Source: a virus. From it: 64,000 bases of DNA. The stretch lies in IMG/VR virus record IMGVR_UViG_3300036860_000542, positions 1-64,000 of that record; one strand, given 5' to 3'. The notes below the pieces were generated by a model. That model was not told where the DNA came from and did not search any database. It saw only the letters and a list, made by a program, of their open reading frames with translations. Below, one piece after another: positions 1 through 51,504 of the stretch. The position numbers were made by a program, and so were the translations under genes. Numbering within the stretch: position 1 is the stretch's first letter; the number at the start of each line of letters is the position of its first letter.

Positions 1-2
1 TC

Positions 3-35556: not shown

Positions 35557-35886
35557 TTATCGGGAACGCTTGCCGAGAAAGTAGCCAAGAGCGCCCACAG
35601 CCACCATGGCGATAACGTTCATGGGGTCTTCGAGGATTCCGTCGAGTCCCTTCAAGCCCTTCGGCAGCTTCGAGTCGGCGATCTTCTTGACGCACCGCTT
35701 GAGCTTCTTGGAGTAGATGAAACCGACCGGACACGGATCCTTCGGCGGATCAGGCTCCACCAGGAGGATGCGCTCCGCTCCCCACTGCGGTCCCCAGGTG
35801 GGGTACTGGATCGGGAAGGGGTACGGGTAGAATCCTCCGCCCCGCCGATGATGCCAACCAAGTCCGGTGCGTCCCATGTTCATCAT
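35557..35886 (-). CDS. putative virion membrane protein
   Basis: GLG motifs, C-terminal hydrophobic helix followed by GKRSR. Confidence 0.6.
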   Translation of the reverse strand: MMNMGRTGLGWHHRRGGGFYPYPFPIQYPTWGPQWGAERILLVEPDPPKDPCPVGFIYSKKLKRCVKKIADSKLPKGLKGLDGILEDPMNVIAMVAVGALGYFLGKRSR

Positions 35887-36185
35887 CCTTTCAGGAGACC
35901 GTACCCAACACCAGCAAGACCCACCAGACGCGCTGTCTTGCGCTCCATGCCGAGGAGACAGGCCACACCCATCGCGAGGAGCCCGAACTGCACAGCGGGC
36001 ACCACAGAGCCCCAGGCGCCCAATCCGTCGGCGTTGCCGACGTACTGGAGCTGGGTGACGCCGCCCGTGTGGAACTTCCCGCTCAGCGGCGCCGGTGCCT
36101 CGGGCTTGCAGCACGGCTTGCCGACGTAGCAGTTGTTGCAGCACTTCTTCTTGGCGCCCTTGTGCTTCATCTGCCACCTCCGCAC
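35883..36185 (-). CDS. putative virion membrane protein
   Basis: Cys-rich basic N-terminus, DGLGA, two hydrophobic helices. Confidence 0.55.
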   Translation of the reverse strand: MRRWQMKHKGAKKKCCNNCYVGKPCCKPEAPAPLSGKFHTGGVTQLQYVGNADGLGAWGSVVPAVQFGLLAMGVACLLGMERKTARLVGLAGVGYGLLKG

Positions 36186-36631
36186 TCACAGAAATACCGA
36201 GACTTTCCGCATACTTGGCAGCGACCGTTCTTGCGAGTCGCGAGCTCGAGAGTGCTTCCACACCGCTTGCAGTGTCCGATCTCGAAGCGCTCCTCGTCGT
36301 CCTCACGACGACCGCCTGGGTGCGTCTCGGTTCGGAAGAGGCTGGGATCCGACTTGAGTCGCTCGTGGTAGGCGACGGGACAACTCTCCTGGCTGAACTT
36401 GTGGGTGGCGCGCTTGCGGCGCACGTGGACGGTGGTGGCACCACCCTTCGGATCGGTGACGACCTCGAAGCCAGCCGGCCCTGCAGCCTTGGTGAGCTCC
36501 TTCAGGAGGGCGTAGGACGTGTTATCGTCGGCGTCGAACTGCATGGTCTCGACGCCCAGAGCTGTGAGTGTGTCGTAGACGAAGGCTTCAGCAGCGCTGC
36601 CTTCGGGAACGACCGCGTAGGCTCGAGTCAC
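36167..36631 (-). CDS. hypothetical protein with C-terminal Zn ribbon
   Basis: GTG start overlapping upstream stop; CKRC, CQVC. Confidence 0.5.
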   Translation of the reverse strand: MTRAYAVVPEGSAAEAFVYDTLTALGVETMQFDADDNTSYALLKELTKAAGPAGFEVVTDPKGGATTVHVRRKRATHKFSQESCPVAYHERLKSDPSLFRTETHPGGRREDDEERFEIGHCKRCGSTLELATRKNGRCQVCGKSRYFCECGGGR

Positions 36632-37056
36632 ACGTCCCTCGCGATGTTCTTCTCGATTGCGACTCGCCACCGGCAGAGACCAAGACCGAACTCCTGGCGC
36701 CTCCCTTCCGGTAGCTCCCAAGTGCATTCGAACGGCTCGACGGAGAGCTCGCCGGTTTCCGGCTTCCAATCCATGTCCTTGCGCTCCTGGCGCACGTAGA
36801 GGGCGTGCGGGGCACCGGGCATGGAGCACTTCGGGCAGATGAGGTGGAGGACGAAACGTCCATCCGTCAAGTAGAGGTCGGACTCGATCACCCGGTCACG
36901 CCAGCGGATGAGCGGGTGACCGATAGCCGACTTCGTCATGTCGATGGACGACTGGATACCGTGCTGTGCCGACTCCCCGGACGGATCGGGGACGTCACCA
37001 GCAATGTGGTAGAGGGATTCGCGTTGAGGGTCGAAGGCAGTGCTCATGGTGTACAT
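36628..37056 (-). CDS. hypothetical Zn-binding protein
   Basis: CPKC...LSVEPF.C...C.W. Confidence 0.55.
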   Translation of the reverse strand: MYTMSTAFDPQRESLYHIAGDVPDPSGESAQHGIQSSIDMTKSAIGHPLIRWRDRVIESDLYLTDGRFVLHLICPKCSMPGAPHALYVRQERKDMDWKPETGELSVEPFECTWELPEGRRQEFGLGLCRWRVAIEKNIARDV

Positions 37057-37067
37057 CCTACCAGGAG

Positions 37068-37364
37068 CTACTTCCTCTTGCCACCACGCCTCTTCAGGAG
37101 GTAGATCCCACCGATCACTGCCACTCCGCCCAAGATCCATGGCAGGTAGCTGGGGGACTCCTGGATCGTGACCGGCGCCGCAGCCTGCCCCTTCCCGAAG
37201 ACGGAAGCGATCGCGTCGAAGCCGGACTTGATGGTCCCGCCCCAGTCTGTCTTCGCGGTGGTCGCAGCGGCCGGCTTCGGGGTCACGCTGCCAAGAATCC
37301 CACCGGTGATGCTTCCAGTGAGGGCCGGCGTCGCACCCATCCCGGTCTTGATGTACTGGCTCAT
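37068..37364 (-). CDS. tail-anchored membrane protein, MSQY paralog 3
   Basis: MSQYIKTGMGA; WILGGVAVIGGIYLLKRR. Confidence 0.75.
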   Translation of the reverse strand: MSQYIKTGMGATPALTGSITGGILGSVTPKPAAATTAKTDWGGTIKSGFDAIASVFGKGQAAAPVTIQESPSYLPWILGGVAVIGGIYLLKRRGGKRK

Positions 37365-37606
37365 TTCTTTCCTCCAGCCGCCTTGCGGCGACGCTTCAAG
37401 AAGTAGGCGCCGCCGACGAGCGCGACGGCACCAAGCAGGTACCACTTGTACGTGTCCAAGAAACCGCCCGAAGGCGCGGCGGCGGCAGCGGCAGCGCGTT
37501 CGGCAGCTCGCTTGGCGGACACGCAGCGTTCCACGCCACCGGACCTACGATGAAGTTGTCCAGGACCGCAGGTCAAACCGAGACCGATGGGAACGTACTG
37601 GCTCAT
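37361..37606 (-). CDS. tail-anchored membrane protein, MSQY paralog 2
   Basis: MSQYVPIGLGL; YKWYLLGAVALVGGAYFLKRR. Confidence 0.75.
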   Translation of the reverse strand: MSQYVPIGLGLTCGPGQLHRRSGGVERCVSAKRAAERAAAAAAAPSGGFLDTYKWYLLGAVALVGGAYFLKRRRKAAGGKK

Positions 37607-37845
37607 CGCTTTCTGCCCTTCTTGCGTCCTCGGCGCTTGAGATAGATGACTCCGCCTGCAAGCGCCATGGTACCCAGCAGGTACCACTTGTACTTGGAGA
37701 CGAAGCCTTCCTGCACCGGAGTGACCGTGGTTCCTGTTGGTCCTGTGCTCACCTTGACGCCGGCTTTGGCCAGCTGGGTGCTCAAGGTGGGAATCATCCT
37801 CGAGAAGACGCCAGGAACCGCACCAACTGCGATGTACTGGCTCAT
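37603..37845 (-). CDS. tail-anchored membrane protein, MSQY paralog 1
   Basis: MSQYIAVGA; YKWYLLGTMALAGGVIYLKRR. Confidence 0.75.
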   Translation of the reverse strand: MSQYIAVGAVPGVFSRMIPTLSTQLAKAGVKVSTGPTGTTVTPVQEGFVSKYKWYLLGTMALAGGVIYLKRRGRKKGRKR

Positions 37846-38888
37846 GACCGCCTCCGTAGGAAGAGGAAGTAGATGGCCGCCGCGCCACCGGCGTAGAGGG
37901 CCCACTTCGGCACCTTGCTCAGCATGCCGGCCGCTGCGGCTGCAGGGAGTTCAGGAGCGGCCGGGGCCGGCCCGGCATCCTCTTCGCCTTCCTCTGGGGG
38001 AGCATCAGGGCTCCACGGGCCGCTGGGACCACCGCCTCCACCACCCCCGCCACCGGCGTAGGCTTCCGGCGGAAGAGGCATGGATGGACCCGGTACGATC
38101 GGCGTGAGACTCGAGACCGGTCCTGGAGGCGACTGCACGAGCGGTTGCGCCGTCGTGGCGGATGCGAACGACTTGGTGGAGAGCGTCGCGAGCGTCGGCT
38201 TGACCAACGACCCGGTCTTGGGCAAGGAAATCGTCCGCGACGGAGCGGCCAGCTTCTCGGTGATCTGCTTGAACCAACCCTTGTGAAGGCCGCGATTGCC
38301 CGGCGCCGTCTTGGTGCCGAGTACGCGCTTCACCTTCTTCTTGGCAGCAGCACGCTGCGCAGCAGTGGGTACGAGCGGCATGGCTTTCTTGACCTCCGTC
38401 TGTTTCACAACCGCGGGCGCCGGGGCCTTCACCGGAAGGAGTACCGGGGCCGTCACAGCGGCCACGGGAAAAGTGGGGACGGTGGCCTTCGTCACAGGTG
38501 TGAGCGAAGAGACCGGCCCCGCCGGCATGGGAGCGATCAAACTTGGAGCCGCAACTCGCGTCGGCGCTGGGGCTGGCGTCGTCGAGATCGGAGCGAGTGC
38601 AGAGACGAGGCTTGGCAGAGGTGTCGCCACCGATCGGATCGGAGCGGCTGATACGACGAGCGGCTTCACCGACACCGGTGGGATGACCATCGGCTTCGCG
38701 GCCGTGGCACGAGCCACAGCAGACACTGGGGCGGCCTTGGAGACCGCAATCGGAGCCGCCTTGGGCACAGGCTTCGGGGCGGGCTTGGGCGCAGGTCTCG
38801 CCACCGCCACCACCTTCTTGACGGCGGCCACGATCGGCTTGGGGGCCGTCACCGACAGGGTGAGGCCAAGGCTGCGTCTGTACGACAT
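37842..38888 (-). CDS. Ala/Pro/Lys/Thr-rich low-complexity protein with C-terminal membrane anchor
   Basis: MSYRRSLGL start; PKPA repeats; poly-Gly linker; KWALYAGGAAAIYFLFLRRRS. Confidence 0.7.
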   Translation of the reverse strand: MSYRRSLGLTLSVTAPKPIVAAVKKVVAVARPAPKPAPKPVPKAAPIAVSKAAPVSAVARATAAKPMVIPPVSVKPLVVSAAPIRSVATPLPSLVSALAPISTTPAPAPTRVAAPSLIAPMPAGPVSSLTPVTKATVPTFPVAAVTAPVLLPVKAPAPAVVKQTEVKKAMPLVPTAAQRAAAKKKVKRVLGTKTAPGNRGLHKGWFKQITEKLAAPSRTISLPKTGSLVKPTLATLSTKSFASATTAQPLVQSPPGPVSSLTPIVPGPSMPLPPEAYAGGGGGGGGGPSGPWSPDAPPEEGEEDAGPAPAAPELPAAAAAGMLSKVPKWALYAGGAAAIYFLFLRRRS

Positions 38889-39229
38889 CAGCGCTTCCCC
38901 AGGGAGTACCCGATGAAGAAGGGGATACCCAGAACGGCGAGCGCGGCGACCGGCGCGACCCACTTGTGCTGCAGGGCGTACTTGTACGCCTTCAGGGGCG
39001 CCACCGCGTACTTGAGGCCGATACCAGCAGGCTTGGCGCCGCCAGGTTTGGCTGGCGGCTGCAGCGCGTTGATGTCCATGATGAGCCCCGTCACCTTGGG
39101 GAGTGCTGGGTCATCAAGGATCGCGGACGTGGCCTGCACAACTCCGCCCACCTTGCCGGCGTACTCGGCCACCGCGCCAGCGAGTGCTTGGCGGCGAGCT
39201 CTGCTCCGGTTGCGGTTGACGTAGCTCAT
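38888..39229 (-). CDS. putative virion membrane protein
   Basis: MSYV basic leader; C-terminal hydrophobic helix followed by GKR. Confidence 0.7.
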   Translation of the reverse strand: MSYVNRNRSRARRQALAGAVAEYAGKVGGVVQATSAILDDPALPKVTGLIMDINALQPPAKPGGAKPAGIGLKYAVAPLKAYKYALQHKWVAPVAALAVLGIPFFIGYSLGKR

Positions 39230-39337
39230 CAGATCCTCAAGTAGCCCGTCGATCTTCGTCTCCGTCCCTGAACACGTCTCCGGTAGTTCGTGCAGGGTAG
39301 GCCTCGCGAGGCCGACGGGCTAGTTCAAGAGCCGATG

Positions 39338-39949
39338 CTACTTCTTCCTCCTTCCGGCCAGACGCATCACCAGGTTGCCGACGCCCAGCTTGGTCCAGGC
39401 CAGGTAGGCGATCCCAACGATCACGCCCCACTTCATGAGCTGGCCACTGGTGTCACACTGCCAGGCGCCGTACTTGGCGATGCACTCGTACTTCTCCTTC
39501 TCCTTCGCGTAGTCGGCGTAGGAGTTGATCGCCGCCATGAGCACTAGAGCCACGGCGCCAACCACGATCAACAGGGGCAGGATGCCCTGCGCCTGCGGGC
39601 CGGAGGGCGGTGGCGCCGCGCCGACGATGATCAGTCGAGCGAGGGTCGGAGCGTCCGATGGGAGACGGACGTTCGACCCGTATACCTCGAGCAGGAGCGC
39701 TTGCATCTTCGCCGCCAGCGTCGCCTCGATCTGAGCCCGTTCGGCCGCCTCTGTTGGGGAGAGCCCGGCGCGGCTGTTCATGTCGCGGTACTTGAGCCAG
39801 TCCTTCAAGGACCGCTTCATCTTGTTGAGCTCGACTCGAGGGTTCTTCATGGGGGTAGCTCCCATCCCACCGTAGTGGATGAGCTCCGCCAACGGCGCAT
39901 CGGAATGCGGGATCTGGCGGACAGGAACGGTGTCGTAGTGCTTCGCCAC
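39338..39949 (-). CDS. putative virion membrane protein, two TM helices
   Basis: GTG start with AGGAG SD; YGGMGATPMKNP; two hydrophobic helices; basic tail. Confidence 0.7.
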   Translation of the reverse strand: MAKHYDTVPVRQIPHSDAPLAELIHYGGMGATPMKNPRVELNKMKRSLKDWLKYRDMNSRAGLSPTEAAERAQIEATLAAKMQALLLEVYGSNVRLPSDAPTLARLIIVGAAPPPSGPQAQGILPLLIVVGAVALVLMAAINSYADYAKEKEKYECIAKYGAWQCDTSGQLMKWGVIVGIAYLAWTKLGVGNLVMRLAGRRKK

Positions 39950-39957
39950 TTCGTCTC

Positions 39958-40572
39958 CTACATGTTGACGATGCGGTAGCCAGGCAGCGCGACCACGAGC
40001 TGGCCCTGCGTCGGCGGCGTCGAGCCGCTGAACGTGATGGCCTCGTAGGTCGGGGTGACGGCGATCGTCGTGTTCGGGGTGAACAGCGACGGCACCGGCA
40101 GCGGGATGACGTTCTCCGGCTGCGAGAGCAGTCCACCAGGAACCGGGGACGACTGGAAGTTGCGCTGCGACCCGGTGTCGATGAACTGGTAGCTGATGTC
40201 GATGAAGTCGGCCGCGATGGTCTGCGTGGGGAGCTGCGCCGAGCACACCGGCCGCCACCGACCGAAGTTGGTGGCGCTGGAGGGCAGCGTCGGCTTCCAC
40301 AGGATCATCGGGTAGTGGGTCATGATGAACGGGCCGTCCTGGGAGACCAGCATCTGGGCTGGGTTCCCCTGGCGACCGTTCACCGTGATGTCGAACAGCA
40401 CGGTGCCGACGAGGGTATAGAAGAGACGACGACCAGGGATGGCGTCGATCTCCTCCTGGACGGTGCGCGGCTTCTTGGCCGCCTCCTTCAGGATGTCCAT
40501 CTCCTGTCGGAGACGCATGATCTCCTGCTTGAAGGGGGCGAGGGCCTGTCTGAGGGCTGCGTTGTCGGACAT
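39958..40572 (-). CDS. putative single-jelly-roll capsid protein 2
   Basis: Short N-terminal coiled coil then about 160 aa of alternating beta-type sequence; LPVPSLF.PNTTIAV and terminal LVVALPGYR mirror the upstream gene. Confidence 0.55.
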   Translation of the reverse strand: MSDNAALRQALAPFKQEIMRLRQEMDILKEAAKKPRTVQEEIDAIPGRRLFYTLVGTVLFDITVNGRQGNPAQMLVSQDGPFIMTHYPMILWKPTLPSSATNFGRWRPVCSAQLPTQTIAADFIDISYQFIDTGSQRNFQSSPVPGGLLSQPENVIPLPVPSLFTPNTTIAVTPTYEAITFSGSTPPTQGQLVVALPGYRIVNM

Positions 40573-40655
40573 CGGAAGCACTCCCTATACCCGGAGGTTG
40601 GGCTGGTCTGGTCGAACACCGGGTTGCGACTCGCCAGACCTTCGAGGGTAGAAGT

Positions 40656-40702
40656 GAGGGGGGAAGTCGGGCGGGGTGTGGGTGTACCCGACTTCCCCCC
40701 TC
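40656..40702 (-). terminator. 16-bp perfect hairpin after the putative major capsid gene
   Basis: GAGGGGGGAAGTCGGG 40656-40671 / CCCGACTTCCCCCCTC 40687-40702; weak U tract. Confidence 0.65.
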
Positions 40703-40713
40703 GTGTCGAACGA

Positions 40714-41292
40714 CTACTGGACGTCGCGGGTCTGGAGGCCGTCGATGACGAACATGATCACCTTCTCGTCATCGGTGGCGCCCGTGTTCAGGTTCACCAG
40801 GGCGTCGGTGGAGCCCACGGTGAAGAACTGGCACTGGACCGCGAAGTTCTGGCGGACCGGCACCATGATGGGCCGCGCCAGCTTCAGGATCGCCTCGTGG
40901 GTCGGATCGCCGAGGTTGAAGATGGACGTGGTGTCGTCCACCGAACCCCAGACGCCGCCGCCCGACGGGTAGTACCAGCACGGCGCCTGGAAGGCCGGCT
41001 TGTCACCCAGCGACAGGGTGAAGTAGAGCTGCGAAGCCACCCGCAGGTAGTTCGCACGACGGTTGGTGCCGTTGAAGTACAGCCAGCACCGCAGGGCCAG
41101 GATGACGTAGGTCTGATCGGACGCGAGCTGGCCGGCGACCTGGAGGTTCGTGAGGTCCAGGCGGCCGATGTTCGCGTTGCCGAACAGCACCGTGGTCTGC
41201 TGGACCACCGGCGAGGGGGTGCCGGTGGTGCGGATGATGGTGTCCCAGAACGGCTGGTGACGACGTTCCTTGACTCCGTGAAGACGAGGCAT
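40714..41292 (-). CDS. putative single-jelly-roll major capsid protein
   Basis: 192 aa, beta-rich, strong AAGGAG SD, strongly biased codons, followed by a strong hairpin; TNL..AGQL, L..PI.VP.RQNF.V, terminal FVIDG..R.VQ. Confidence 0.62.
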   Translation of the reverse strand: MPRLHGVKERRHQPFWDTIIRTTGTPSPVVQQTTVLFGNANIGRLDLTNLQVAGQLASDQTYVILALRCWLYFNGTNRRANYLRVASQLYFTLSLGDKPAFQAPCWYYPSGGGVWGSVDDTTSIFNLGDPTHEAILKLARPIMVPVRQNFAVQCQFFTVGSTDALVNLNTGATDDEKVIMFVIDGLQTRDVQ

Positions 41293-41465
41293 CTGGCTTT
41301 CTCCTTGCTCTCGACGTCCTCTGTTTTGTCTCGACCGAGCATCATTGCCGGTCTAGTGGGGTGACTTCCCCATCTGCAGACGTCGATCCAGCGGGTAGTG
41401 CAGCGGGCAGCGCGGAGTGAAGTGGAAGGTGGGGGCCCCCGAAGGAGCCCCCACCTAGTCGCGTT

Positions 41466-42881
41466 CTAGTAGCCCCAGCCCCAGCCGCCGAAGATGCCGG
41501 CGTACAGGGAGTCGAGCTTGTCGGCGGCCGGCGTCCACTGGGGGACCGTTCGGACCATCGACCTGGAGGGCACAGGGGCCAGCATGCGGGCCGTGGGGAC
41601 CGGGGCGACCATGGCAGGAGCACCGGCGGCGCCGAGCTCCTCGTAGGCACCGGTCTCCATGTACTCGCCGAGCTCCTCTTCGGCGCCCGTCTCGACGTAC
41701 TCGCCCGTCTCGACGTACTCGCCCATGTCCTGCTGGAAGGCGCCGAGGGCCTCGTCGTACACGCCCTCCGCCGCGCCCAGGGCAGCCTGGACCGACAGCG
41801 GGGCGTACGCCTTGATGAGGGCCTCGATCAGGTTCACGCCCAGGCCGATCATGATCGGCGAGTGGTACCGGGACAGGAACCGGACCTTCTTGGTGGCGAT
41901 GCTGCCCAGGACCACCATGCCGGCATGGAGGACAGGACCAGCGTGGTTGCCCAGCTTGTCCGCCACCATGCCGCCCAGGCGGCTCACGATCAGCCGGCCA
42001 CCGACCATGGCGCCGACTACCGGAAGGGCAGCCTTGGCCACGGTCATGAGCCCGCCGAGCGGGTTCTTGCGGAGGCGGAAGCCCCGCAGGATGCCACCAC
42101 GACGCCGGCCATGACGGCGCCGACGCGGGTTGTGACGCCGACGCCGACGGCGACGGGGATTCGCCAGCACGGGGGCGAAGGCATTGCGGCGACGACGCCG
42201 AGCGTGACGACGCCGACGAGGATTCCGACGAGCCTTGCGACGCCGACGCTTCCGGCGCGGGTTCATCAACGGCTCACCCGCTGTGAAGTGCCGACCACCG
42301 GCGTACTTCTTCCGCCGGGTCCGCCACGCCTTCTTGGCCGCACGACGCCGACGCGCCTTCCCGTAGCTCTTCCGGCGCACCTTGCCACGGCGGGCCTTCC
42401 GACGCTTGCGGAAGCCCTTGGGTCCGTACTTCTTCCGCCGGGTCCGCCACGCCTTGAGGGCGGCGCGACGGCGCTTGCTCGACTTCCTCTTCTTCGCCAT
42501 CGGGGTTCTCCTTCTCTTGGGCCGTCGCGCCTTCCGGCGCGGGTTGGTGTACAACAGGGCCGCGTTGCGGCGGCGACGCCTCCGGCGCGGGTTGGCCAGC
42601 GCCGTCATGTGGGGGTTCTTGCGGCGGCGCCGAGCCTTGCCGAACTTCTTGTTGTGGGCCCGCCAGTAGCGCTTGAGGCCGATCGGCATCTTGCGCGAGA
42701 TCTTCACAGGACCCTTCGGACGGCGCGCCTTGGAGCGCTTCCGCTTCGGGTTCAGGCGGGACGCCCGAACAGCAGCGAGGCCGCCGCGGGCAGTGGAAGC
42801 AGTTCGACGGGCCTTGATGAGGCCGAGCTTTCGCCGGAGGGCTGCGGTTCTTCCAGGAGGATTGACGAACCAGGTTGGCAT
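41466..42881 (-). CDS. protamine-like Arg/Lys-rich core polyprotein with membrane-associated and acidic C-terminal domains
   Basis: About 270 aa of Arg/Lys runs split by ten NP dipeptides; then hydrophobic helices; then GEYVET repeats. Confidence 0.75.
   Translation of the reverse strand: MPTWFVNPPGRTAALRRKLGLIKARRTASTARGGLAAVRASRLNPKRKRSKARRPKGPVKISRKMPIGLKRYWRAHNKKFGKARRRRKNPHMTALANPRRRRRRRNAALLYTNPRRKARRPKRRRTPMAKKRKSSKRRRAALKAWRTRRKKYGPKGFRKRRKARRGKVRRKSYGKARRRRAAKKAWRTRRKKYAGGRHFTAGEPLMNPRRKRRRRKARRNPRRRRHARRRRRNAFAPVLANPRRRRRRRHNPRRRRHGRRRGGILRGFRLRKNPLGGLMTVAKAALPVVGAMVGGRLIVSRLGGMVADKLGNHAGPVLHAGMVVLGSIATKKVRFLSRYHSPIMIGLGVNLIEALIKAYAPLSVQAALGAAEGVYDEALGAFQQDMGEYVETGEYVETGAEEELGEYMETGAYEELGAAGAPAMVAPVPTARMLAPVPSRSMVRTVPQWTPAADKLDSLYAGIFGGWGWGY
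41684..41724. repeat. 18-bp tandem repeat encoding GEYVET
   Basis: CGCCCGTCTCGACGTACT twice plus a partial copy. Confidence 0.85.
42302..42455. repeat. 31-bp direct repeat encoding KAWRTRRKKY
   Basis: Identical copies at 42302-42332 and 42425-42455. Confidence 0.85.
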
Positions 42882-42977
42882 GCTCTCTCCGTTCAGTTTC
42901 CCAACGACAAATCGTTGGGGGCGCTTCCGCGGTTACTGTTGTCCGCGCACCGGAGAGAGCGAGGACTTGCGAGTCTA

Positions 42978-43007
42978 AAGATACGGGTACTTCCAGGACC
43001 CTGTCAA
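42978..43007 (-). promoter_or_regulatory. sigma70-like promoter for the core/capsid operon
   Basis: Minus strand TTGACA-18 nt-TATCTT. Confidence 0.65.
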
Positions 43008-43009
43008 GT

Positions 43010-43438
43010 TCATCTACGCCTGGGGGAGGATAGAGCGGAATCCAGCTTAGATTCCAAGCGGTTAAGAGATTCGAGAATCGACCGAAGTCGTACCTCCTGC
43101 TCCGCTTTGGATACCTCGAGCGTCTTCACACGCTCGTCGAGGGTCTTCTGCATGGCGGTGTACTCCGCCCTCGCGCTCACGAAGCTCTCCGCGTCGGGGT
43201 ACTTCCCGAGACGGAACACCGTCACCGCGATCGGCACACCCATGGTGATGACGAAGGCGCACACCCACGATGCCACCTTCGCGATCGACGGACGAAGCAT
43301 GTTCTCGATCCACGAGAACTTCGTATTGCCCTGGTTGAGGCTGTTCTTCACCTCTTCCTTGAAGTGCGCGAAGGTGTGCTCAATGACGAGCATGCGATCG
43401 CGCAGCTCCTTGAACTCTTCGGCTTCCTGTGGAGTCAT
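43010..43438 (-). CDS. membrane protein with coiled coils (holin-like candidate)
   Basis: One central TM helix flanked by heptad segments; ATGA overlap. Confidence 0.5.
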   Translation of the reverse strand: MTPQEAEEFKELRDRMLVIEHTFAHFKEEVKNSLNQGNTKFSWIENMLRPSIAKVASWVCAFVITMGVPIAVTVFRLGKYPDAESFVSARAEYTAMQKTLDERVKTLEVSKAEQEVRLRSILESLNRLESKLDSALSSPRRR

Positions 43439-44145
43439 CCGGTTATGCCTTCCGGTCTCACGTCCAGCATCCCGCCCCACAACGCGGCCTCGAGCCTCGC
43501 TCGAGGTCCCTTCACGTCGATGATGAGCAGGGCGCGACCGGAAGGAACAGCGTAGAGCTCAGGATACGGTCGCGCCTCTGCATCAGACTTCCTGCCGGCG
43601 GCGTTCTTGTACTGGAAGCCGAGACACAGGCCGAGCAGGTAGAGGCTCTCCACCTTCTTCAGCCAACTAGGAACCTCTTCCAGCGGACCCTCATCGATCA
43701 TGGAGTCCGTTGGCACGTACACACCCACTCCGGCCTCGTGCTCGTGGATGTAGTCGTTGAACTTCGACTCCCACTTGTCGGAGCGATAGAGGATGTGGTA
43801 GGCATCGCCGATGTACATGAGCTCCGAAGGCATCTGAAAGCCTTCCAGAATGCCGAACTCCTGGGGATCGAACTTGGTGAAGCGCTTGTAACCCTTCACC
43901 GCGTCCATGAAGTCGGGGGGAGGTTCAGGTGGGTTCTTTTGTGGACGCTCGCCCAACTTGCGAAACATGTCCTCTTTCGAGAAACCCAGGTATCCGTGCA
44001 TGTGATGCTTGCCCATGCCAGCGTCGGCATCAAACCAGGCGTTGCTCTGTCGATCAAAGTAGACCGTCGCGATGGTGTTGCCATCGTCGTCAACCACCAG
44101 TTGATTGCCGGTGTCCGCGTAGTCCTTGGCACGTTTCAACTTCAC
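43435..44145 (-). CDS. putative virion protein with internal KNP junction
   Basis: Two segments joined at RPQKNPPEPPP; position in structural block. Confidence 0.55.
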   Translation of the reverse strand: MKLKRAKDYADTGNQLVVDDDGNTIATVYFDRQSNAWFDADAGMGKHHMHGYLGFSKEDMFRKLGERPQKNPPEPPPDFMDAVKGYKRFTKFDPQEFGILEGFQMPSELMYIGDAYHILYRSDKWESKFNDYIHEHEAGVGVYVPTDSMIDEGPLEEVPSWLKKVESLYLLGLCLGFQYKNAAGRKSDAEARPYPELYAVPSGRALLIIDVKGPRARLEAALWGGMLDVRPEGITG

Positions 44146-44564
44146 CGAATCGCCTCCAACGTCTCGACGAAGTGGCGGTTGGAGAGCGCGCTATCTCCAC
44201 GCAGAGATCGGATTCTGGAGACGACGGTTCGAGCACTCATACCCATGATCCGCATCGCCATGGCAGCCACCCAGGCGGAACGGTTGCGGCCCGCAAAACA
44301 GGTGACGAGAACCTTCTTGCCCCTCTCCAACGCATCCGCCACCACGACCGCAGTGCGAAGCGCCCACGCACGCTCCGTCAAGGTGGGCTTGGCGTCGTCA
44401 AGGCCTACGTAGACGAGGTTCTGTCCGGTCTCTGGGAATCGAGGTTGGTACTCAAGGGCAGTGAAGACGATCATATCGAAGCCCTTCGGAAGAACCATGG
44501 GAGCCGAACCGATGAATAGGTTCGGATACACCTCAGTTCTGTCTGCGAGCTCCTTCATGTTCAT
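44142..44564 (-). CDS. dual-specificity protein phosphatase
   Basis: EVYPNLFIGS, LDD acid loop, VLVTCFAGRNRS (CX5R), R..AL.N..F. Confidence 0.85.
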   Translation of the reverse strand: MNMKELADRTEVYPNLFIGSAPMVLPKGFDMIVFTALEYQPRFPETGQNLVYVGLDDAKPTLTERAWALRTAVVVADALERGKKVLVTCFAGRNRSAWVAAMAMRIMGMSARTVVSRIRSLRGDSALSNRHFVETLEAIR

Positions 44565-44845
44565 CTCATGATGCGCCAGAGGCCGTAACCGAGCAACCCC
44601 AGGCCAATGTACAACGACCAAGAGGAGCCGCCGAGATCGAAGTCTCCCAATCCTCGAGCGATCTGGCCACGAGCAGCTGCGCCCTCACCGATTTTCCTCA
44701 CGCCAGCAGGCAGTGCCCAACCAGCTTGGTCTGAAGCCACACGGGTGCCGAGATGAGATGGTGCCTTCGGGAACGCGGCGGTCTGATGGCCGTCCTCGTA
44801 GTAGTCGTACCGGCGCAAGGCCGGCTTCCAGACCGAGTAGATCAC
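44561..44845 (-). CDS. small tail-anchored membrane protein
   Basis: RGLGDF followed by a C-terminal hydrophobic helix. Confidence 0.65.
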   Translation of the reverse strand: MIYSVWKPALRRYDYYEDGHQTAAFPKAPSHLGTRVASDQAGWALPAGVRKIGEGAAARGQIARGLGDFDLGGSSWSLYIGLGLLGYGLWRIMR

Positions 44846-45030
44846 TTCTTTCCGCCCAGCCAGATCAGAGCCATCACCAGGACGAAGGTTCCGCCGAGGC
44901 CGAGAAGAACACTCTTCCCGTCCACCGCACCAAGACCATGCTTCCTGGAGGGAGGAGCCGGGTAGCCGCGCCAGTCCCAGGCGTAGGGCGCCATGCCGTG
45001 GGAGTAGAATCCATCCTTGGGAGCTGCCAT
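44842..45030 (-). CDS. small tail-anchored membrane protein
   Basis: HGLGAV followed by a hydrophobic helix and GKK. Confidence 0.65.
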   Translation of the reverse strand: MAAPKDGFYSHGMAPYAWDWRGYPAPPSRKHGLGAVDGKSVLLGLGGTFVLVMALIWLGGKK

Positions 45031-45034
45031 CGGA

Positions 45035-46009
45035 CTACCTCCGCTTCTTCTTGGGCTTGAAGATGAAGAAGGCCGCGACGCCGATGCCGGCGGCGGCGAC
45101 CATGCCGTACCCGGACGTGAGGAAGTTCATGATGCCGCTTCCCAGGAGCGACGTGCCGGCGCTACCCGCGTCGGGCGACATCGATGACACGAGGCTCTGC
45201 ACGGAGGCCACCGCCTGGCCCGCGGTGCCAAGGTACTTCCTGATTATGATGGCCGTCTTGTCGGCCGAGGCCGCCACGACGAACGGACGCTGGTACTTCT
45301 CCCAGGCGATGTAGACACCCTGGAGATGGTTCGCCTCATCCGTGGTGAGCTTACGATTGTAGCGATCCAAGAATAGCTCCTTGGCCCTCCGCGCTGCGGC
45401 AGCCGCCGTCTTCGGGCCGATCTTCCCATCGATCGCCACGCCGAGGACCGTCTGGAGCTGCTTGAACTTGGTGGTCACGGCTGGGCTCTTGCCGAAGCAA
45501 TACTCCGCGCTGCCACCGCCCACACAATCGATCGACGTGCTGGGGATCGTATAGATGATGGCGGCGTCGAGCGGAGACACTGAAGCACCAAGGCTGATCG
45601 GCTCGCCGATCGCTGTGCGCTGCGTCTGCTTCCAGTTGATCTGCTTCATCGGCTTCAGGTTCCACCGCTTGTTGCGGCGGCAGAGCTTGTAGATATGCAT
45701 CCACGGAACCGCCGGCCAGTTGCGGCCCGCAACCTGAGCGATGGCAGACTGAGTCGCCGCGTTCATGAGGCCGTTTCTCGGGACGTTGAAGCCGAGCTCG
45801 TTGAGGCACTTCTGGATGCCTTGCACGACCACCATGACCGGCTGCGAGGACGGATCGCTCTCCCCAGGCGTGAGGAAGAGAGTCGGGACCGCCATGCTGG
45901 CCAGATACGGTCGCACGCCCATGTCGGCGATGATCTGCCGAACGTCGAGCGGGCCGATCGGGAACTCAGGCGCTTCGGCTTCGCCGTTCTTCTTCTCTTC
46001 CTTTGCCAT
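45035..46009 (-). CDS. membrane-anchored protein with two peptidoglycan-binding-like motifs
   Basis: VQGIQKCLNELGF....NG.M...T..AI and LQ..LGV.IDGKIGPKT..A; C-terminal TM followed by KPKKKRR. Confidence 0.65.
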   Translation of the reverse strand: MAKEEKKNGEAEAPEFPIGPLDVRQIIADMGVRPYLASMAVPTLFLTPGESDPSSQPVMVVVQGIQKCLNELGFNVPRNGLMNAATQSAIAQVAGRNWPAVPWMHIYKLCRRNKRWNLKPMKQINWKQTQRTAIGEPISLGASVSPLDAAIIYTIPSTSIDCVGGGSAEYCFGKSPAVTTKFKQLQTVLGVAIDGKIGPKTAAAAARRAKELFLDRYNRKLTTDEANHLQGVYIAWEKYQRPFVVAASADKTAIIIRKYLGTAGQAVASVQSLVSSMSPDAGSAGTSLLGSGIMNFLTSGYGMVAAAGIGVAAFFIFKPKKKRR

Positions 46010-46011
46010 GA

Positions 46012-46644
46012 TCAATCTCTCCTTCGAGTCACCAGGTGCGTGACGTAGAACGCGCCAAGACCGATGCCGGCCCACTTCATCCAAGTGGGCACGCTGGGTA
46101 GGAGCCACCAGGCGGCCTTGAATGGCGCCTTGACGATCGCCTGCGCCACGTCGTGCGCGGCTTCAGCAACCGCTTCTCCGAACATCGTGTACGCTCGCGG
46201 TGCCAAGAAGATCCCGCCGGACCGGAGCACAAGCTGTTCGGTGGACTTCCAGAAGCTCACCGCCAAGCTCTCCGGCAGAATCGAGTTGCCGTAGGCGTTC
46301 GCGAGCGCGGTGTTGATCCAACCAGTCTCCGACTGCCAGGCGGGGTACTCGCGCTTCCACGCGATACGGCCGGCGGAAGTGAGCAGCGGTGCTGCCACTC
46401 CGAATAGGAGGGCATTGAAGGCCTCATCGTTGTTCACGCGCTTGTTGACTTGCGTGAACGGCTCCTCCCAGAAGTTCTTCAGCTTCAACCATTGCGTGCC
46501 CGAGAGGTTGGGGTATCGAATGTCCGTCCGACCGGGAAGGAAGACGGAAGTCTCTCCCCAGACACGCCTCGCCTCGTTCTTCTGAGCAGCGAGCATGCCC
46601 ACGAAGTCGCGGTAGTTGACGGTCTGGACGGTGAAGTTCGCCAT
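46012..46644 (-). CDS. tail-anchored membrane protein
   Basis: WMKWAGIGLGAFYV..LV.RRRD. Confidence 0.65.
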   Translation of the reverse strand: MANFTVQTVNYRDFVGMLAAQKNEARRVWGETSVFLPGRTDIRYPNLSGTQWLKLKNFWEEPFTQVNKRVNNDEAFNALLFGVAAPLLTSAGRIAWKREYPAWQSETGWINTALANAYGNSILPESLAVSFWKSTEQLVLRSGGIFLAPRAYTMFGEAVAEAAHDVAQAIVKAPFKAAWWLLPSVPTWMKWAGIGLGAFYVTHLVTRRRD

Positions 46645-46652
46645 GGCTTACC

Positions 46653-47780
46653 TCACTTCAACAGGATGACAGCAAGGAGGATGGCGCCCCCGCCGATGGC
46701 CACCGGGATGATGGGAAAGCCACCGCCGGTAGAGCCAGCATCGCCAGGCGTCGGAGCGCAAAGACCTTGCGCCACGTCGGCGCCGGTCGAACCAGCCTGC
46801 GCGCCCTGTGGTCCACCAGCCGCCGCGCCGCCCGCCATCGCGCCGAGCTTGAGAAGGCCGCTGTTGGCGATCTTGCACGCCACCTTCCCGACCTTGTCGA
46901 GCGCGTTCTTCGCCTTGTCGGCGACCTTGCTGGCCGTCCCGGGGAAGGTGAGCGCAAGAGACGCCCCACCAGTAGCAGGAGCGAGGATGACGCCTGCTCC
47001 CTTCTTGGCGTAGCTCTTCACGGAGCTCCACAGGCCACCGAGACCATCAGCCCCAGCGCAGCACGCACCGAGACCCATGAGGCCGCTGGTGGGCGCCTTG
47101 CCCGTCTTGCCCATCTCCATGAGCTGGTCGAGCGTGTGGTTGGCAACGACGACGGTGATGGCCTTCAGGAGCGCCGTCTTCGCGTCGTACTTCTTCGCCT
47201 TCATCAGCAACTCGGCCTTGGACTCCACCGCGGCCGGGAAGCTCGAGTCGATGTTCCCAAGCACCGCCTGGAGGAAGATCTTCCTCTCGATCGGTGTCCT
47301 GAACTGGCGGGCATCGGCCATCAGCATGCCGGCGATCTGCTTGGCGAGCTGCGCCACGCCATCACGACCGCCGCCCGGAGCGTCGGCAAGCGCGCCGAGC
47401 GAGCTCCGACCAGCGAGCGTCGGGTTCGACAAGGTGCCGTACTTGCCCGCGCTCTTGTTCTCGTCGAAGATTCCGACGCCGACGCGCTCGGTGTGCTCAC
47501 GCGCCGTGACGATCTCCGGGATGAGACCGAAGATCGTCCCGCGCTTCGTGTAGTGGGTGGTTCGCACGCCCTGGCCGAGCGGTTCGTCACGGACCGACTG
47601 CGGAAGGATGTACGGAGGCCAACCGCCTGGGTTCCGCGGGTTGCGCAGGCCCTGAACGTCGATCGTCTTCCTCTTGCGGTACTTCGAGACGATAGCGCCT
47701 CGACGGAACGGCTCGTCGATGACGTTCTGCGGGATCGCGTACCCGGCGATGTAAGGAGATCCGCGTCTCAGAAGAGCCAT
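46653..47780 (-). CDS. putative virion membrane protein with several LG motifs
   Basis: AAGGAG SD; SLGA, GLMGLGA, DGLGGLW; C-terminal TM. Confidence 0.7.
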   Translation of the reverse strand: MALLRRGSPYIAGYAIPQNVIDEPFRRGAIVSKYRKRKTIDVQGLRNPRNPGGWPPYILPQSVRDEPLGQGVRTTHYTKRGTIFGLIPEIVTAREHTERVGVGIFDENKSAGKYGTLSNPTLAGRSSLGALADAPGGGRDGVAQLAKQIAGMLMADARQFRTPIERKIFLQAVLGNIDSSFPAAVESKAELLMKAKKYDAKTALLKAITVVVANHTLDQLMEMGKTGKAPTSGLMGLGACCAGADGLGGLWSSVKSYAKKGAGVILAPATGGASLALTFPGTASKVADKAKNALDKVGKVACKIANSGLLKLGAMAGGAAAGGPQGAQAGSTGADVAQGLCAPTPGDAGSTGGGFPIIPVAIGGGAILLAVILLK

Positions 47781-47781
47781 G

Positions 47782-48303
47782 TCACTTTCTCCTTTTGGAC
47801 TTGCGAGCTGCAACCTCAAGATAGCGGATCATCCGACGCAACGTGTTCACGTTGTCGTCGATCAGACCAAGAGCCATGTTGCAGATGTGGCAGAGTAACC
47901 CGCGTACCGCGCCTGTTTTATGATCGTGATCGATCGGCCACTTGTGATGATCTCTCCACGGACCACGAGTCTCTTTCGAGCCGCAAATGGCGCAGGCGTG
48001 ACCCTGTCTCTGTAGCATGCGATTGTATTCAGCATCCGTAAGACCGAACTTTCTTAGCCTTCGGGCAGCCGAACGTAGGACTTTTGTCTCCGGCGACTTT
48101 TCGTATGCGCGCCTTTCAGCTAGGTACTTTTTCCAAGCTGCAGGATCTTCTTTCTTCAGCTTCTGCTTCCAGCGCTTGATGCGTTCTCGCGCCTTCCTTT
48201 TACACTCTTCATACCAAGCAGGGTCCTCTTCGGCTTTCTTTCGATGCCAAAGGGTGGACGCGCTCTTTCCGCCCCGATCCTTCATGTACATAGTATAGCT
48301 CAT
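47782..48303 (-). CDS. endonuclease VII-type HNH (homing) endonuclease
   Basis: Q...CAIC...IDHDHKTG.VRGLLC..CN..LG; visibly more AT-rich than neighbours. Confidence 0.88.
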   Translation of the reverse strand: MSYTMYMKDRGGKSASTLWHRKKAEEDPAWYEECKRKARERIKRWKQKLKKEDPAAWKKYLAERRAYEKSPETKVLRSAARRLRKFGLTDAEYNRMLQRQGHACAICGSKETRGPWRDHHKWPIDHDHKTGAVRGLLCHICNMALGLIDDNVNTLRRMIRYLEVAARKSKRRK

Positions 48304-48857
48304 GCCACCGGCCACACCTTGGCCGCGACGACGCGCCTGAGCATCTTCCTCGTGTCGGGACCCGCTACGGGGTCGCAGACAATCCACGTTCCACTCTTCG
48401 GCTCTCGAGCCTCACAGAAGACGTGGCTGTACTGGCGTTCCTTCTTGTAGAACATGTGCCGGAATGCGCAAGTCACCACCCTCACTTCGCATCCAACGGC
48501 AAGGCACAACGCCCCGATGAGCGCTGCCATGTCGTCGCAGTCGAGGTTCGGAATCTGGCCGGTCTTCATCTGGTTGCACACCACGTAAGGCGCCTTGACA
48601 AGCTCGATGGTACGCGGATCGCGCATGTAGCGCGTGTGCGCGGAGACGAAGTTGTTGACGGCCAAGATCTCGGAGAGATAGTCCTTCGTGCGCAGACCCT
48701 GGCAGATGTCCTCAGCGAGCTGGCGCACGCACGAGTGGTTCTGCGACTCGAGCATTCCGCGGGCGATGAAGGCGACGCTATGCGGCGCCCCACGGTAGTC
48801 GAGCTTCAGAACCCTGTCATCACCAAGTCCCCACGGCACGTAGGGGACACTTTCCAC
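48300..48857 (-). CDS. transglutaminase-like (papain-fold) cysteine protease candidate
   Basis: Y..DP..E, DCDD (Cys), SHVF (His), W...DP (Asp). Confidence 0.85.
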   Translation of the reverse strand: MESVPYVPWGLGDDRVLKLDYRGAPHSVAFIARGMLESQNHSCVRQLAEDICQGLRTKDYLSEILAVNNFVSAHTRYMRDPRTIELVKAPYVVCNQMKTGQIPNLDCDDMAALIGALCLAVGCEVRVVTCAFRHMFYKKERQYSHVFCEAREPKSGTWIVCDPVAGPDTRKMLRRVVAAKVWPVA

Positions 48858-48884
48858 CGGAGAAGTCGTGGACTTACACCTGAG

Positions 48885-48914
48885 AATATACAGGACCAGG
48901 GCCTAGGGGTGCAA
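48885..48914 (-). promoter_or_regulatory. sigma70-like promoter
   Basis: Minus strand TTGCAC-18 nt-TATATT. Confidence 0.55.
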
Positions 48915-48918
48915 CTTG

Positions 48919-50559: not shown

Positions 50560-51067
50560 CGGAATCTCCTTCGGGTTCGTCGTTGGATTCCTCGACGGCC
50601 TCATCCGCATCACCCTCGGGGTCTCCAGCTTCCTCGCTCTCATCCGAGGTCGTATGCTCCTCGACGGCCTCCGCCGTGAGCTCGAACGCGGTGAGGTACG
50701 CGGCGGCCTGGCCCTGCAGACGCTTGGCCGTGGTGTCATCGAGAGGGACGCCGGCCTTCATCTTGGCGACCTCGTCCGCGATGACCTTCCCCAGCTCGAG
50801 GGTAGCCAGGATCTGATCAGCGAGCTCGGGTTGGATCAGACTGTCGGACCCATCGATGAGAGCGTCCATCGCCTGCTCGAGACGCACGATGCGAGCTCCG
50901 AAGTGATCCGCCATCGTCTGCATGAGCGGGTAGGCGTTGTCACGGAACTCGTTCTTCGCCTCGATGAACTTGGCCTTGGAGACGCGCTGCTCCGCTTTCG
51001 CCAAGTCCTCCATCAGGAAGGCATGCTCCTCTTGTCCTTCGGTGGTGTCTTCCGGCTTGTCCATCAC
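50552..51067 (-). CDS. helical protein with acidic tail
   Basis: ORF overlapping both neighbours; Glu/Asp-rich C-terminus. Confidence 0.7.
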   Translation of the reverse strand: MMDKPEDTTEGQEEHAFLMEDLAKAEQRVSKAKFIEAKNEFRDNAYPLMQTMADHFGARIVRLEQAMDALIDGSDSLIQPELADQILATLELGKVIADEVAKMKAGVPLDDTTAKRLQGQAAAYLTAFELTAEAVEEHTTSDESEEAGDPEGDADEAVEESNDEPEGDSDE

Positions 51068-51504
51068 TTCTTCTCCTTCTTGCGAGGCGCCAGGTAACGC
51101 TGGCGAGCGTGTTCACGATTCGCGATGTCCATAGGGTCCATGGGGACCCACTCGGAGCATTCGAAGACGCAGTCATCGGTGAGGTCGAGCTCCACACCAG
51201 GGATGACCTTGCAGATGCGGTTGATCTGCCTTGGCGCCCGATCGAGGCCTCTCGACTCCACCTCCGCGAAGGAGTGGATCTCGATGTAGTGACGACAGGG
51301 ACCACGTAGGCAAACGAAGTTGTCCGGGCTGGCCTTCGGAAGCGGTTCGGGTCTCCCAAGGTACCCGACCATGTTCGGGCCGCCGTCCTTCGCCGGAGGC
51401 GGCGCCGGGTCCGGTTCCACGTCCTTCCAGGGGTCGAGCTCCTTTCGCTTCTCGTCGTCGAGCTTGTCGCCGTCTTTACCCACCTGCCGGTTGCCGATCT
51501 TCAT
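51064..51504 (-). CDS. Cys-containing hypothetical protein, first gene of leftward block
   Basis: GGAG SD; C...C.H, C...C..C. Confidence 0.7.
   Translation of the reverse strand: MKIGNRQVGKDGDKLDDEKRKELDPWKDVEPDPAPPPAKDGGPNMVGYLGRPEPLPKASPDNFVCLRGPCRHYIEIHSFAEVESRGLDRAPRQINRICKVIPGVELDLTDDCVFECSEWVPMDPMDIANREHARQRYLAPRKKEKK

Follow-up and report, generated by a model that had tools for sequence, protein, structure and literature searches.

The viral record IMGVR_UViG_3300036860_000542 of IMG/VR comprises 82,417 nucleotides (nt), of which the first 64 kb are the stretch of DNA analysed here and referred to as the window. The minus strand of the window carries an open reading frame (ORF), hereafter the target gene, for a protein in which an exceptionally basic N-terminal arm is joined to a hydrophobic helical domain and an acidic repeat tail, and in which Asn residues of the arm are mostly followed by Pro. 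A first-pass annotation made from the letters of the DNA had interpreted this protein as a protamine-like polyprotein, segmented by Asn-Pro (NP) junctions, that condenses the viral genome and tethers it to a viral membrane. Here, we report a computational analysis of the gene, its relatives and its genomic neighbourhood. The target is a real, conserved gene, and the comparison of homologs indicates that the NP pairs are a selected, Asn-specific punctuation of the arm. We then weigh what the protein might do, with the emphasis on a role in the virion interior.

The gene and the features discussed below are collected in Table 1. The share of G and C at third codon positions (GC3) is 0.84, similar to that of the neighbouring genes, and this counts among the signs of a real gene. 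The three-part layout proposed in the first-pass annotation is present and is conserved in a large family; the arm, described there as about 270 residues of Arg and Lys runs, proves to be 273 residues long with a single acidic residue, and over this length it is dominated by Arg, as befits a protamine-like segment. The duplicated KAWRTRRKKY block that had been noticed is also there, its copies, at residues 143 and 184, belonging to a 49-nt DNA duplication (88% identity, 123 nt apart). Both this region (window 42303-42455) and the arms of family members contain a recurring helix motif, of the form R-R-A-A-x-K-x-W-R-x-R-K or M-P-x-A-L-x-x-Y-W-K. In the AlphaFold model, residues 67-88 and 127-165 have a predicted local distance difference test score (pLDDT) of 80-89, and at least one Trp is found in 72 of 102 family arms (arm statistics, here and below, refer to the 102 arms of at least 100 residues among the 131 with the junction Asn); from these features and the helix motif, it follows that the arm is not purely of low complexity. 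At the opposite end of the protein, residues 372-418 include 15 acidic and no basic residues, with GEYVETG at residue 387, an overlapping copy at 393 and GEYMETG at 405. The EEELG repeats are kept across the family, and P438, S441, G462 and F464 in the C-terminal motifs are invariant.

Table 1. Positions of the target gene, its parts and the neighbouring features in the window (K+R, basic residues; D+E, acidic residues; aa, amino acids)
Feature	Position	Strand	Details
Full ORF	41466..42881	-	ATG start; 471 aa, 53.8 kDa, isoelectric point (pI) 12.0
Shine-Dalgarno-like GGAGAG	42885..42890	-	4 nt ahead of first ATG (42881-42879); from sequence
N-terminal motif MPTWFVNP	42858..42881	-	family consensus M-P-I/L-x-Y/F-V-N-P/G
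Basic arm, residues 1-273	42063..42881	-	124 K+R, 1 D+E, ten NP
Internal Shine-Dalgarno AAGGAG from AGA-AGG-AGA Arg codons	42508..42513	-	7-nt spacer to ATG
Predicted nested short form from M128 (ATG 42500-42498)	41466..42500	-	344 aa, 38.8 kDa, starts MAKKRK
KAWRTRRKKY copy 1, residues 143-152	42426..42455	-	repeat family D5
KAWRTRRKKY copy 2, residues 184-193	42303..42332	-	repeat family D5
Junction Asn273-Pro274	42060..42065	-	family motif M/Y-R-R/S-N-P-G/S/A
Hydrophobic Gly/Ala-rich helical domain, residues 274-365	41787..42062	-	AlphaFold, hydropathy
Acidic repeat stretch, residues 372-418 (GEYVET / EEELG units)	41628..41768	-	repeat family D1, 18-nt period
Conserved C-terminal motifs PVPxRSxxRxVP and LYxGIFGG, residues 434-471	41469..41582	-	alignment A1
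g192, 192-aa gene, likely major capsid protein	40714..41292	-	173 nt downstream of target
g207, 207-aa gene, possible second capsid protein	39958..40581	-	47-53% identical, syntenic in L002-L009; alignment A6
Sigma-70-like promoter match TTGACA / 18 nt / TATCTT	42978..43007	-	10 of 12 positions match
Tail-anchor protein	38888-39229	-	
Tail-anchor protein	39338-39862	-	
Tail-anchor protein	44842-45030	-	
Tail-anchor protein	45035-46108	-	
Tail-anchor protein	46653-47819	-	

A profile search of 1.84 billion representative sequences recovered 243 clusters (50% identity) that match the C-terminal domain with an E-value of 0.001 or lower, 101 of them at 1e-30 or lower; a first search had yielded 17 relatives with this domain. 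Across the loci, the C-terminal domain is about 30% identical, and the product of the adjacent downstream gene, g192, is 57-73% identical in 15 loci. The sequence and length of the arm vary freely while the NP pairs are kept. Among gene calls, arm length ranges from 4 to 446 residues with a median of 180, and the family arms consist of 27.2% Arg, 15.7% Lys, 0.6% Glu and 0.4% Asp. Twenty-four gene calls, hand-picked from the cluster search, are short, and 16 of these begin just after the junction; scans aimed at two such seemingly arm-less proteins, P0153 and P0173, found no locus, and in the loci that were read the frame is open upstream of the internal Met or the junction, with the N-terminal motif located there.

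Searches of reference collections gave no match to a characterized family. With the whole protein as query, hmmscan against Pfam-A returned no family at an E-value of 0.1 or lower, comparison with PHROGs gave no match, and neither did tblastn against 50,697 GenBank phage records; the profile of alignment A5 reached an E-value of only 0.17 against PDB sequences, and the ESM Atlas returned only unnamed viral clusters (0.89-0.90). A fold search with the model of the target produced generic helical matches only, the best of which, KvAP (1orq_C, Z 8.2), falls under the tool's line for helical folds. In the literature, searched without supplementary files, neither the lineage nor the protein was found to have been described.

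Of the 15 Asn residues in the target, 13 lie within residues 1-285, and ten NP pairs are found, at residues 7, 44, 89, 97, 113, 207, 220, 241, 251 and 273 (VNP, LNP, KNP, ANP, TNP, MNP, RNP, ANP, HNP and KNP, respectively). The first-pass annotation had listed these contexts, together with RRRNA, which accounts for two of the remaining arm residues (106 and 233); that part of its tally stands, but it missed the third, HNK at residue 77. Shuffling residues 1-285 20,000 times gave 0.91 NP pairs on average, and no shuffle reached ten. Given that part of this excess stems from recent duplication of an NPRRRR unit in the DNA (repeat families D3, D4 and D10), the shuffling of a single sequence overstates its independence, and comparison across the family is the sounder test.

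That comparison, which the first-pass annotation had suggested as a check, comes out in favour of conserved NP. The junction Asn is present in 131 of 132 aligned relatives (the exception has Lys) and the Pro in 124 of 132; after the Asn, G, A, V, F, I or M are also tolerated, and in two loci the Pro is replaced by Val or Met with the Asn retained. Away from the junction, 332 of 532 Asn residues are followed by Pro, compared to 23.4 expected, a 14.2-fold enrichment, and one third of the arm prolines come after Asn; Ser-Pro (0.94-fold) and Thr-Pro (1.11-fold) show no enrichment. The excess of NP is significant in 24 of 26 individual relatives. A family arm contains 1 to 9 NP pairs (median 4), so that the ten of the window protein exceed the range. 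A motif of the M-P-I/L-x-Y/F-V-N-P/G type opens 47 of the 102 arms, Val precedes Asn in 79% of 52 N-terminal NP sites, and NP is followed by an Arg run in 70 of the 102. In one homolog (L002:9158-10618), five tandem YRRNPRRR units immediately precede the junction, that is, the junction motif itself has been amplified.

Two other accounts of the NP pairs were considered and rejected. The first is a basic NP tag employed throughout the genome: in the other 104 predicted proteins, NP occurs at 1.38 times the expectation, close to the 1.44 times of Asn-Gly, and homologs of g174, g388, g606 and g236 do not retain the NP sites of these proteins. The second is a minor-groove binding motif of the SPKK type, in which Ser or Thr precedes Pro and basic residues follow; the Ser-Pro and Thr-Pro ratios given above are at odds with such a motif.

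What the pairs do is more tentatively addressed by the structural model. In the full-length AlphaFold prediction, helices start at residues 99, 208, 221, 243, 252 and 274, in every case on the Pro of an NP pair or on the residue that follows it, so that six of the ten sites coincide with a helix start; most of the arm, including the NP sites other than the junction, has a pLDDT of 50-63. Asn as the helix cap with Pro as the first residue of the helix is a well-known preference. The pairs would most likely start or hinge short Arg-rich helices that form on DNA, a role toward which we lean with less than even confidence; apart from this and cleavage, the balance of our expectation falls to some unspecified binding role.

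Cleavage is the role that the first-pass annotation had assigned to the pairs. According to this alternative, the arm is cut between Asn and Pro, through cyclisation of the Asn side chain or by a protease, which frees DNA-condensing Arg-rich peptides of 7 to 94 residues and separates them from the anchored C-terminal domain. The specificity for Asn, as opposed to Ser or Thr, fits this scheme, and a junction Asn that is retained next to a variable residue is what one would expect of chemistry carried out by the Asn side chain; the amplification of NP units, both in the L002 homolog and in the window gene, points in the same direction. There are also precedents. Self-cleavage between Asn and Pro is established for RsgI and for the outer capsid proteins mu1 of reovirus and VP5 of aquareovirus (PMC10328401), as well as at the NPTH motif of the YscU/FlhB proteins of type III secretion (PMC3189125). 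A conserved Asn-Pro at a domain boundary is common to the target and these self-cleavers (mu1/VP5, RsgI, FlhB/YscU/EscU), and in RsgI it adjoins a membrane helix (PMC10328401).

There are also differences from these precedents. The known sites lie in folded turns with helper residues, whereas the target has up to ten sites in Arg runs that are mostly modelled with low confidence and probably disordered, the junction NP opens a long helix, and NPTH occurs at none of the ten sites. Searches with Pfam and with profiles against PDB sequences found no homology to the Asn-Pro autoproteolytic families. A cut between N7 and P8 would release a pointless 7-residue peptide, although the motif there is among the best conserved, and the helix starts at six NP sites offer an ordinary alternative to cutting. 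As for an enzyme, a six-frame search of the whole genome for adenain (PF00770, Peptidase_C5) gave no match at an E-value of 1 or lower, and no legumain family was found. Together with the near-background frequency of NP in the proteome and the lack of conserved NP on the proteins of the virion module, where a shared protease site would be expected, this leaves a dedicated NP-specific viral protease without support. The sole candidate, a transglutaminase-core protein at 48300-48857 (Pfam E-value 3.5e-6), is not known to have Asn-Pro specificity. We consider processing of the arm into peptides unlikely, with the qualification that some NP sites, above all the nearly invariant junction Asn273, may be cut.

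The arm also appears to contain a second translation start. The internal Shine-Dalgarno sequence falls on Arg codons of a type that the gene rarely uses: AGR codons make up 7 of its 96 Arg codons, and three of the seven encode residues 123-125. In 14 of 15 genes, a Shine-Dalgarno core is located 5-17 nt before the homologous Met (M-A-K/R), with a background of 0.0094 per nt, and it persists although the encoded residues differ. The same combination of signal and ATG (window 42498-42513, minus strand) is seen also among loci L002-L015 and L021-L037. In a set of 20 metagenome loci, 15 have the internal start and 15 the N-terminal motif. Some of these 20 repeat earlier contigs (L033, L034 and L023 probably duplicate L003 and L005 or are close copies of them), and the set omits L031, where the match lies at the 5' end of the locus; in several of them the junction was misplaced, which makes their arm statistics rough but leaves the motif and start counts unaffected. 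Furthermore, 38 of 102 family gene calls begin at a Met of the MA(K/R) type. On the strength of this conserved signal, the gene probably yields two nested products, of 471 and 344 aa.

Beyond the junction, the first-pass annotation placed a membrane domain. A hydrophobic helical domain does follow the last KNP: residues 275-365 are modelled as long helices with a pLDDT of 90-97, and the high-confidence helix begins at 274. The spanning of a membrane, by contrast, is a borderline call, with a best 19-residue Kyte-Doolittle mean of 1.67 (family median 1.56; 62 of 149 members reach 1.6) and conserved Lys or Arg inside every candidate helix. Association with a membrane is nonetheless plausible because the neighbouring genes encode proteins with clear, strong anchors, with hydropathy values of up to 2.97. 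The suggestion that the acidic tail neutralises the arm before processing was rejected, given that the 15-17 acidic residues of the tail cannot offset the 124 basic residues of the arm; judged by their conservation, the tail repeats and the end motifs look more like a docking surface. A complex prediction for g192, g207 and target residues 375-471 (score 0.00, mark 0.32) speaks neither for nor against binding.

The gene directly downstream of the target, g192, was taken for a capsid gene in the first-pass annotation, and the position next to it is confirmed. It has 654 homologs, the best 120 of them at 70% identity or more, on contigs of up to 112 kb. Its AlphaFold model is beta-rich (pLDDT 64), and the structures that it matches best are capsid proteins of the single-jelly-roll type from viruses that contain a membrane: SPV1 (6oj0_T; Z 7.7, root-mean-square deviation 4.2, 129 aligned residues), P23-77 VP17 (Z 6.4) and VP16 (Z 5.4), HHIV-2 (Z 6.2) and HCIV-1 (Z 6.0), as well as SH1 (6qt9_a; Foldseek E-value 1.5e-3). 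A viral structure library returned only generic beta-sandwich matches for g192, and neither this protein nor most of the other module proteins have a match in Pfam or PHROGs. The model-based evidence makes g192 a likely capsid gene. The following gene, g207, combines, according to alignment A6, a heptad-like N-terminal helix of about 45 residues with a beta-rich domain. Contigs from four soil RNA libraries (X9, X11, X15 and X18; 151-189 nt each) match window 40730-41408, that is, g192 and 116 nt upstream, with 0-1 differences; DNA can be present in such libraries, and we take these contigs as a hint of g192 expression. The pieces that match the target itself are short (about 35 nt), differ at 4-6 positions and fall in Arg-coding repeats, which makes them uninformative on its expression.

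The target and its neighbours form a conserved block. The order g606, transglutaminase-like gene, ..., g236, target, g192, g207, g174 and g113 is kept in all eight IMG/VR loci, seven of which are on contigs of 75.6-86.4 kb, and the target is directly upstream of g192 in six of seven loci from metagenome-assembled genomes (MAGs; contigs of 5.6-88.7 kb), the upstream ORF not being found in the seventh (L016). Overall, the structural block (window 35557-51504; L002-L016) is syntenic in contigs of about 68-89 kb. Five of its proteins end in a strong hydrophobic segment (hydropathy 1.74-2.97) followed by a short basic tail, a tail-anchor pattern that fits a virion or assembly membrane. The module further includes the transglutaminase-core protein, a peptidoglycan-binding protein and a dual-specificity phosphatase (Pfam DSPc, E-value 3.6e-9; 44142-44621, minus strand), encoded three genes upstream of the target; tblastn detected no homolog of the phosphatase in L002-L009.

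Upstream of the target, the TTGACA promoter of the first-pass annotation is present as a motif and is the single match of its kind within 6 kb (39000-45000; shuffles averaged 0.4). Its conservation is another matter: none of 12 related loci carries a TTGAC-type site within 260 nt upstream of the gene, and a conserved promoter was therefore rejected. On the opposite strand of the genome, at 69318-71506 (L001:7318-9506), two adjacent paralogs match phrog_10356, 'virion structural protein', with E-values of 5.5e-12 and 1.8e-8, and the 669-aa protein beside them weakly matches Phage_cement_2; this region, which falls outside the window, looks like a second structural cluster.

The record has a 127-nt terminal repeat, suggestive of a complete genome, circular or circularly permuted, and an ORF that spans the record ends through the repeat (window 1-1034, genome 81579-82417) fits a circular assembly. 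The genome encodes a fusion of family-A DNA polymerase and uracil-DNA glycosylase, ribonucleotide reductase, a PIF1-like helicase, a Sak4-like annealing protein and sugar-nucleotide enzymes. When the whole genome was searched in six frames, no TerL_ATPase, Terminase_6N, HK97-type Phage_capsid, Pox_A32 or FtsK family turned up, with no match at an E-value of 1 or lower to PF04665 and PF01580, the A32/FtsK-type packaging ATPases, and scans of the larger ORFs found no portal or tail families. A 549-aa Walker-A protein at genome 79694-81343 could not be assigned to a family. The MAG bins of the relatives (Gemmatimonadota, Thermomicrobiales, Galbitalea, Peribacteria, Kiloniellales and Deltaproteobacteria) are unrelated, so binning gives no host, and a small share in a sequencing run says nothing about habitat. 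The lineage consists of unclassified viruses of roughly 68-89 kb, mainly in soil, and the host is probably bacterial.

Our preferred reading, to which we assign a probability of about 0.5, is that the target is a late structural protein made in two nested forms, with an arm that binds and partly neutralises the packaged DNA and a C-terminal domain that fixes the arm to an internal membrane or to the underside of the shell. The protein would be abundant and probably internal to the virion. The long form, initiated at the first ATG, would carry the complete protamine-like arm, and the 344-aa form, initiated at the internal start, a shorter one; from the composition of the arm, we infer that it condenses DNA, binding the packaged double strand non-specifically and neutralising part of its charge. 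At about +123 per copy, some 1,330 copies would match all 164,580 phosphates of the 82-kb genome, and a few hundred copies would thus give partial neutralisation. Partial neutralisation of that order is adenovirus-like. The arm would be held in place, on the internal membrane or just below the capsid shell, by the well-folded helical domain (residues 274-365), and contact with other parts of the virion would fall to the acidic repeats and the conserved C-terminal motifs.

Several points weigh against this reading. In assembly of the PRD1 type, the cytoplasmic face of the host membrane becomes the side that faces the capsid; an arm with a charge of +123 would be expected to stay cytoplasmic and might, then, face the capsid and not the DNA. 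In the small number of complete genomes, longer arms do not go with longer genomes. The hydrophobic domain, as judged from its sequence, is borderline as a membrane span, and the capsid assignment of g192 depends on a model with a pLDDT of 64 and on matches below the tool's confidence line (Z < 8). If NP were merely a helix cap, enrichment of Ser-Pro and Thr-Pro would be expected, and none was found; the helices of the arm are of low confidence, and AlphaFold may simply apply the known cap preference. Finally, both the presence of the protein in the virion and its binding to DNA are what we infer.

The topological point would favour a different role, in which the arm is sandwiched between capsid shell and internal membrane and acts as a glue that attaches anionic lipid head groups to the capsid, with no contact to DNA. 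A lipid-binding role is attributed to VP11 of P23-77, to which the arm would then correspond. The positive-inside rule, combined with PRD1-type topology, would put the arm on the capsid-facing side, and g192 has its matches to VP17 and VP16 of the same virus. The two jelly-roll capsid proteins of P23-77 are accompanied by a minor capsid protein that is basic (PMC12429598). However, a content of 45% Arg and Lys over 273 residues is far beyond that of VP11 and typical of proteins that condense nucleic acids, the gap between shell and membrane offers little room for a 33 kDa arm per copy, and the target has no sequence relation to any known protein in Pfam, PHROGs or PDB. We regard the glue role as improbable.

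Another possibility is that the target is not in the virion at all, either serving assembly, as a scaffold or chaperone that is then expelled, or acting as a takeover protein that condenses the host nucleoid. Nested long and short forms resemble the scaffold-type gene pairs of tailed phages, and the highly variable arm length of the gene calls suggests loose constraint. Yet the target is located within the conserved structural block, directly before its most conserved gene, its conserved C-terminal motifs suggest a fixed partner, and takeover genes are usually early, whereas this one belongs to a late-looking module on the minus strand. A role outside the virion thus seems very improbable.

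A bolder proposal combines cleavage with packaging. Tailed phages pack naked DNA by a motor. Because no terminase and no A32- or FtsK-type ATPase is detectable in this genome, one can envisage a self-cleaving protamine polyprotein in a prokaryotic virus, in which protease-free Asn cyclisation releases Arg-rich peptides from a membrane- or capsid-bound domain, and the 82-kb genome is condensed by charge neutralisation and not pumped in by a motor. This we consider a long shot, somewhat below the glue role in our estimation. If true, it would be the first adenovirus-mu-like core system outside the viruses of eukaryotes and a new use of Asn-Pro chemistry.

The gene marks a widespread lineage in which a protamine-like protein (100-450 basic residues) occurs and a packaging enzyme cannot be recognised. 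If the arm condenses DNA, as in the reading that we prefer, the system would offer a model, in prokaryotes, of how proteins condense a genome beneath a membrane. The strict, Asn-specific NP punctuation and the conserved nested start are handles on how a polycation is made, kept soluble and deployed.

Genomes condensed by proteins are otherwise found in adenoviruses, baculoviruses, ascoviruses and a few archaeal viruses. The Arg-rich proteins pVII and pre-mu (pX) of adenoviruses condense double-stranded DNA in an icosahedral jelly-roll capsid and are cut from precursors. The target has no Pfam relation to them, its genome has no adenain family and its site motif is NP, not the adenain consensus; the arm has several times the length of pVII and pX, a hydrophobic domain and an acidic tail are joined to it, and the host is probably bacterial. 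P6.9 of baculoviruses, the other comparison made in the first-pass annotation, is likewise a protamine-like DNA-binding core protein, controlled by dephosphorylation; it differs from the target in being very small, regulated through phosphorylation and without an anchor domain, and there is no Pfam relation between the two.

Among membrane-containing viruses with jelly-roll capsids, the two-jelly-roll group (Sphaerolipoviridae-like / Helvetiavirae) has two adjacent small jelly-roll capsid genes, for which g192 would be a candidate counterpart (Z 6.0-7.7, with a pLDDT of 64 for the model), and an A32/FtsK ATPase was not found here. The genome of P23-77 is 17 kb in size. Its VP11 is a 22 kDa protein with a pI of 10.63, present in about 147 copies beside two jelly-roll capsid proteins (PMC12429598). 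Like the target, VP11 is a basic protein whose gene accompanies those of two small capsid proteins and of several small membrane proteins; unlike it, VP11 is far less basic and is not fused to hydrophobic or acidic domains. The portoglobovirus SPV1, whose capsid chain 6oj0_T is the best match of g192 (below the tool's confidence line), has a core in which the nucleocapsid protein VP1 lies beneath a membrane and a shell of single-jelly-roll proteins (PMC8459092). The differences are that SPV1 is archaeal, with a 20-kb genome, and that its VP1 forms a defined filament with A-form DNA.

Among the viral DNA condensers that resemble the target, we would name above all P64 of ascoviruses, a virion protein of 64 kDa with a pI of 12.2, whose basic repeat domain condenses the genomic DNA (PMC6163548). 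Both are large cationic proteins of large DNA viruses, the target having 53.8 kDa and a pI of 12.0. P64 comes from a virus of insects, its basic domain is C-terminal, and NP pairs, a hydrophobic domain or an acidic tail do not figure in the abstract on it; Pfam and PDB-sequence searches detected no relation to the target. From these comparisons, the target would appear to resemble the viral DNA condensers in its working while belonging to none of their families.

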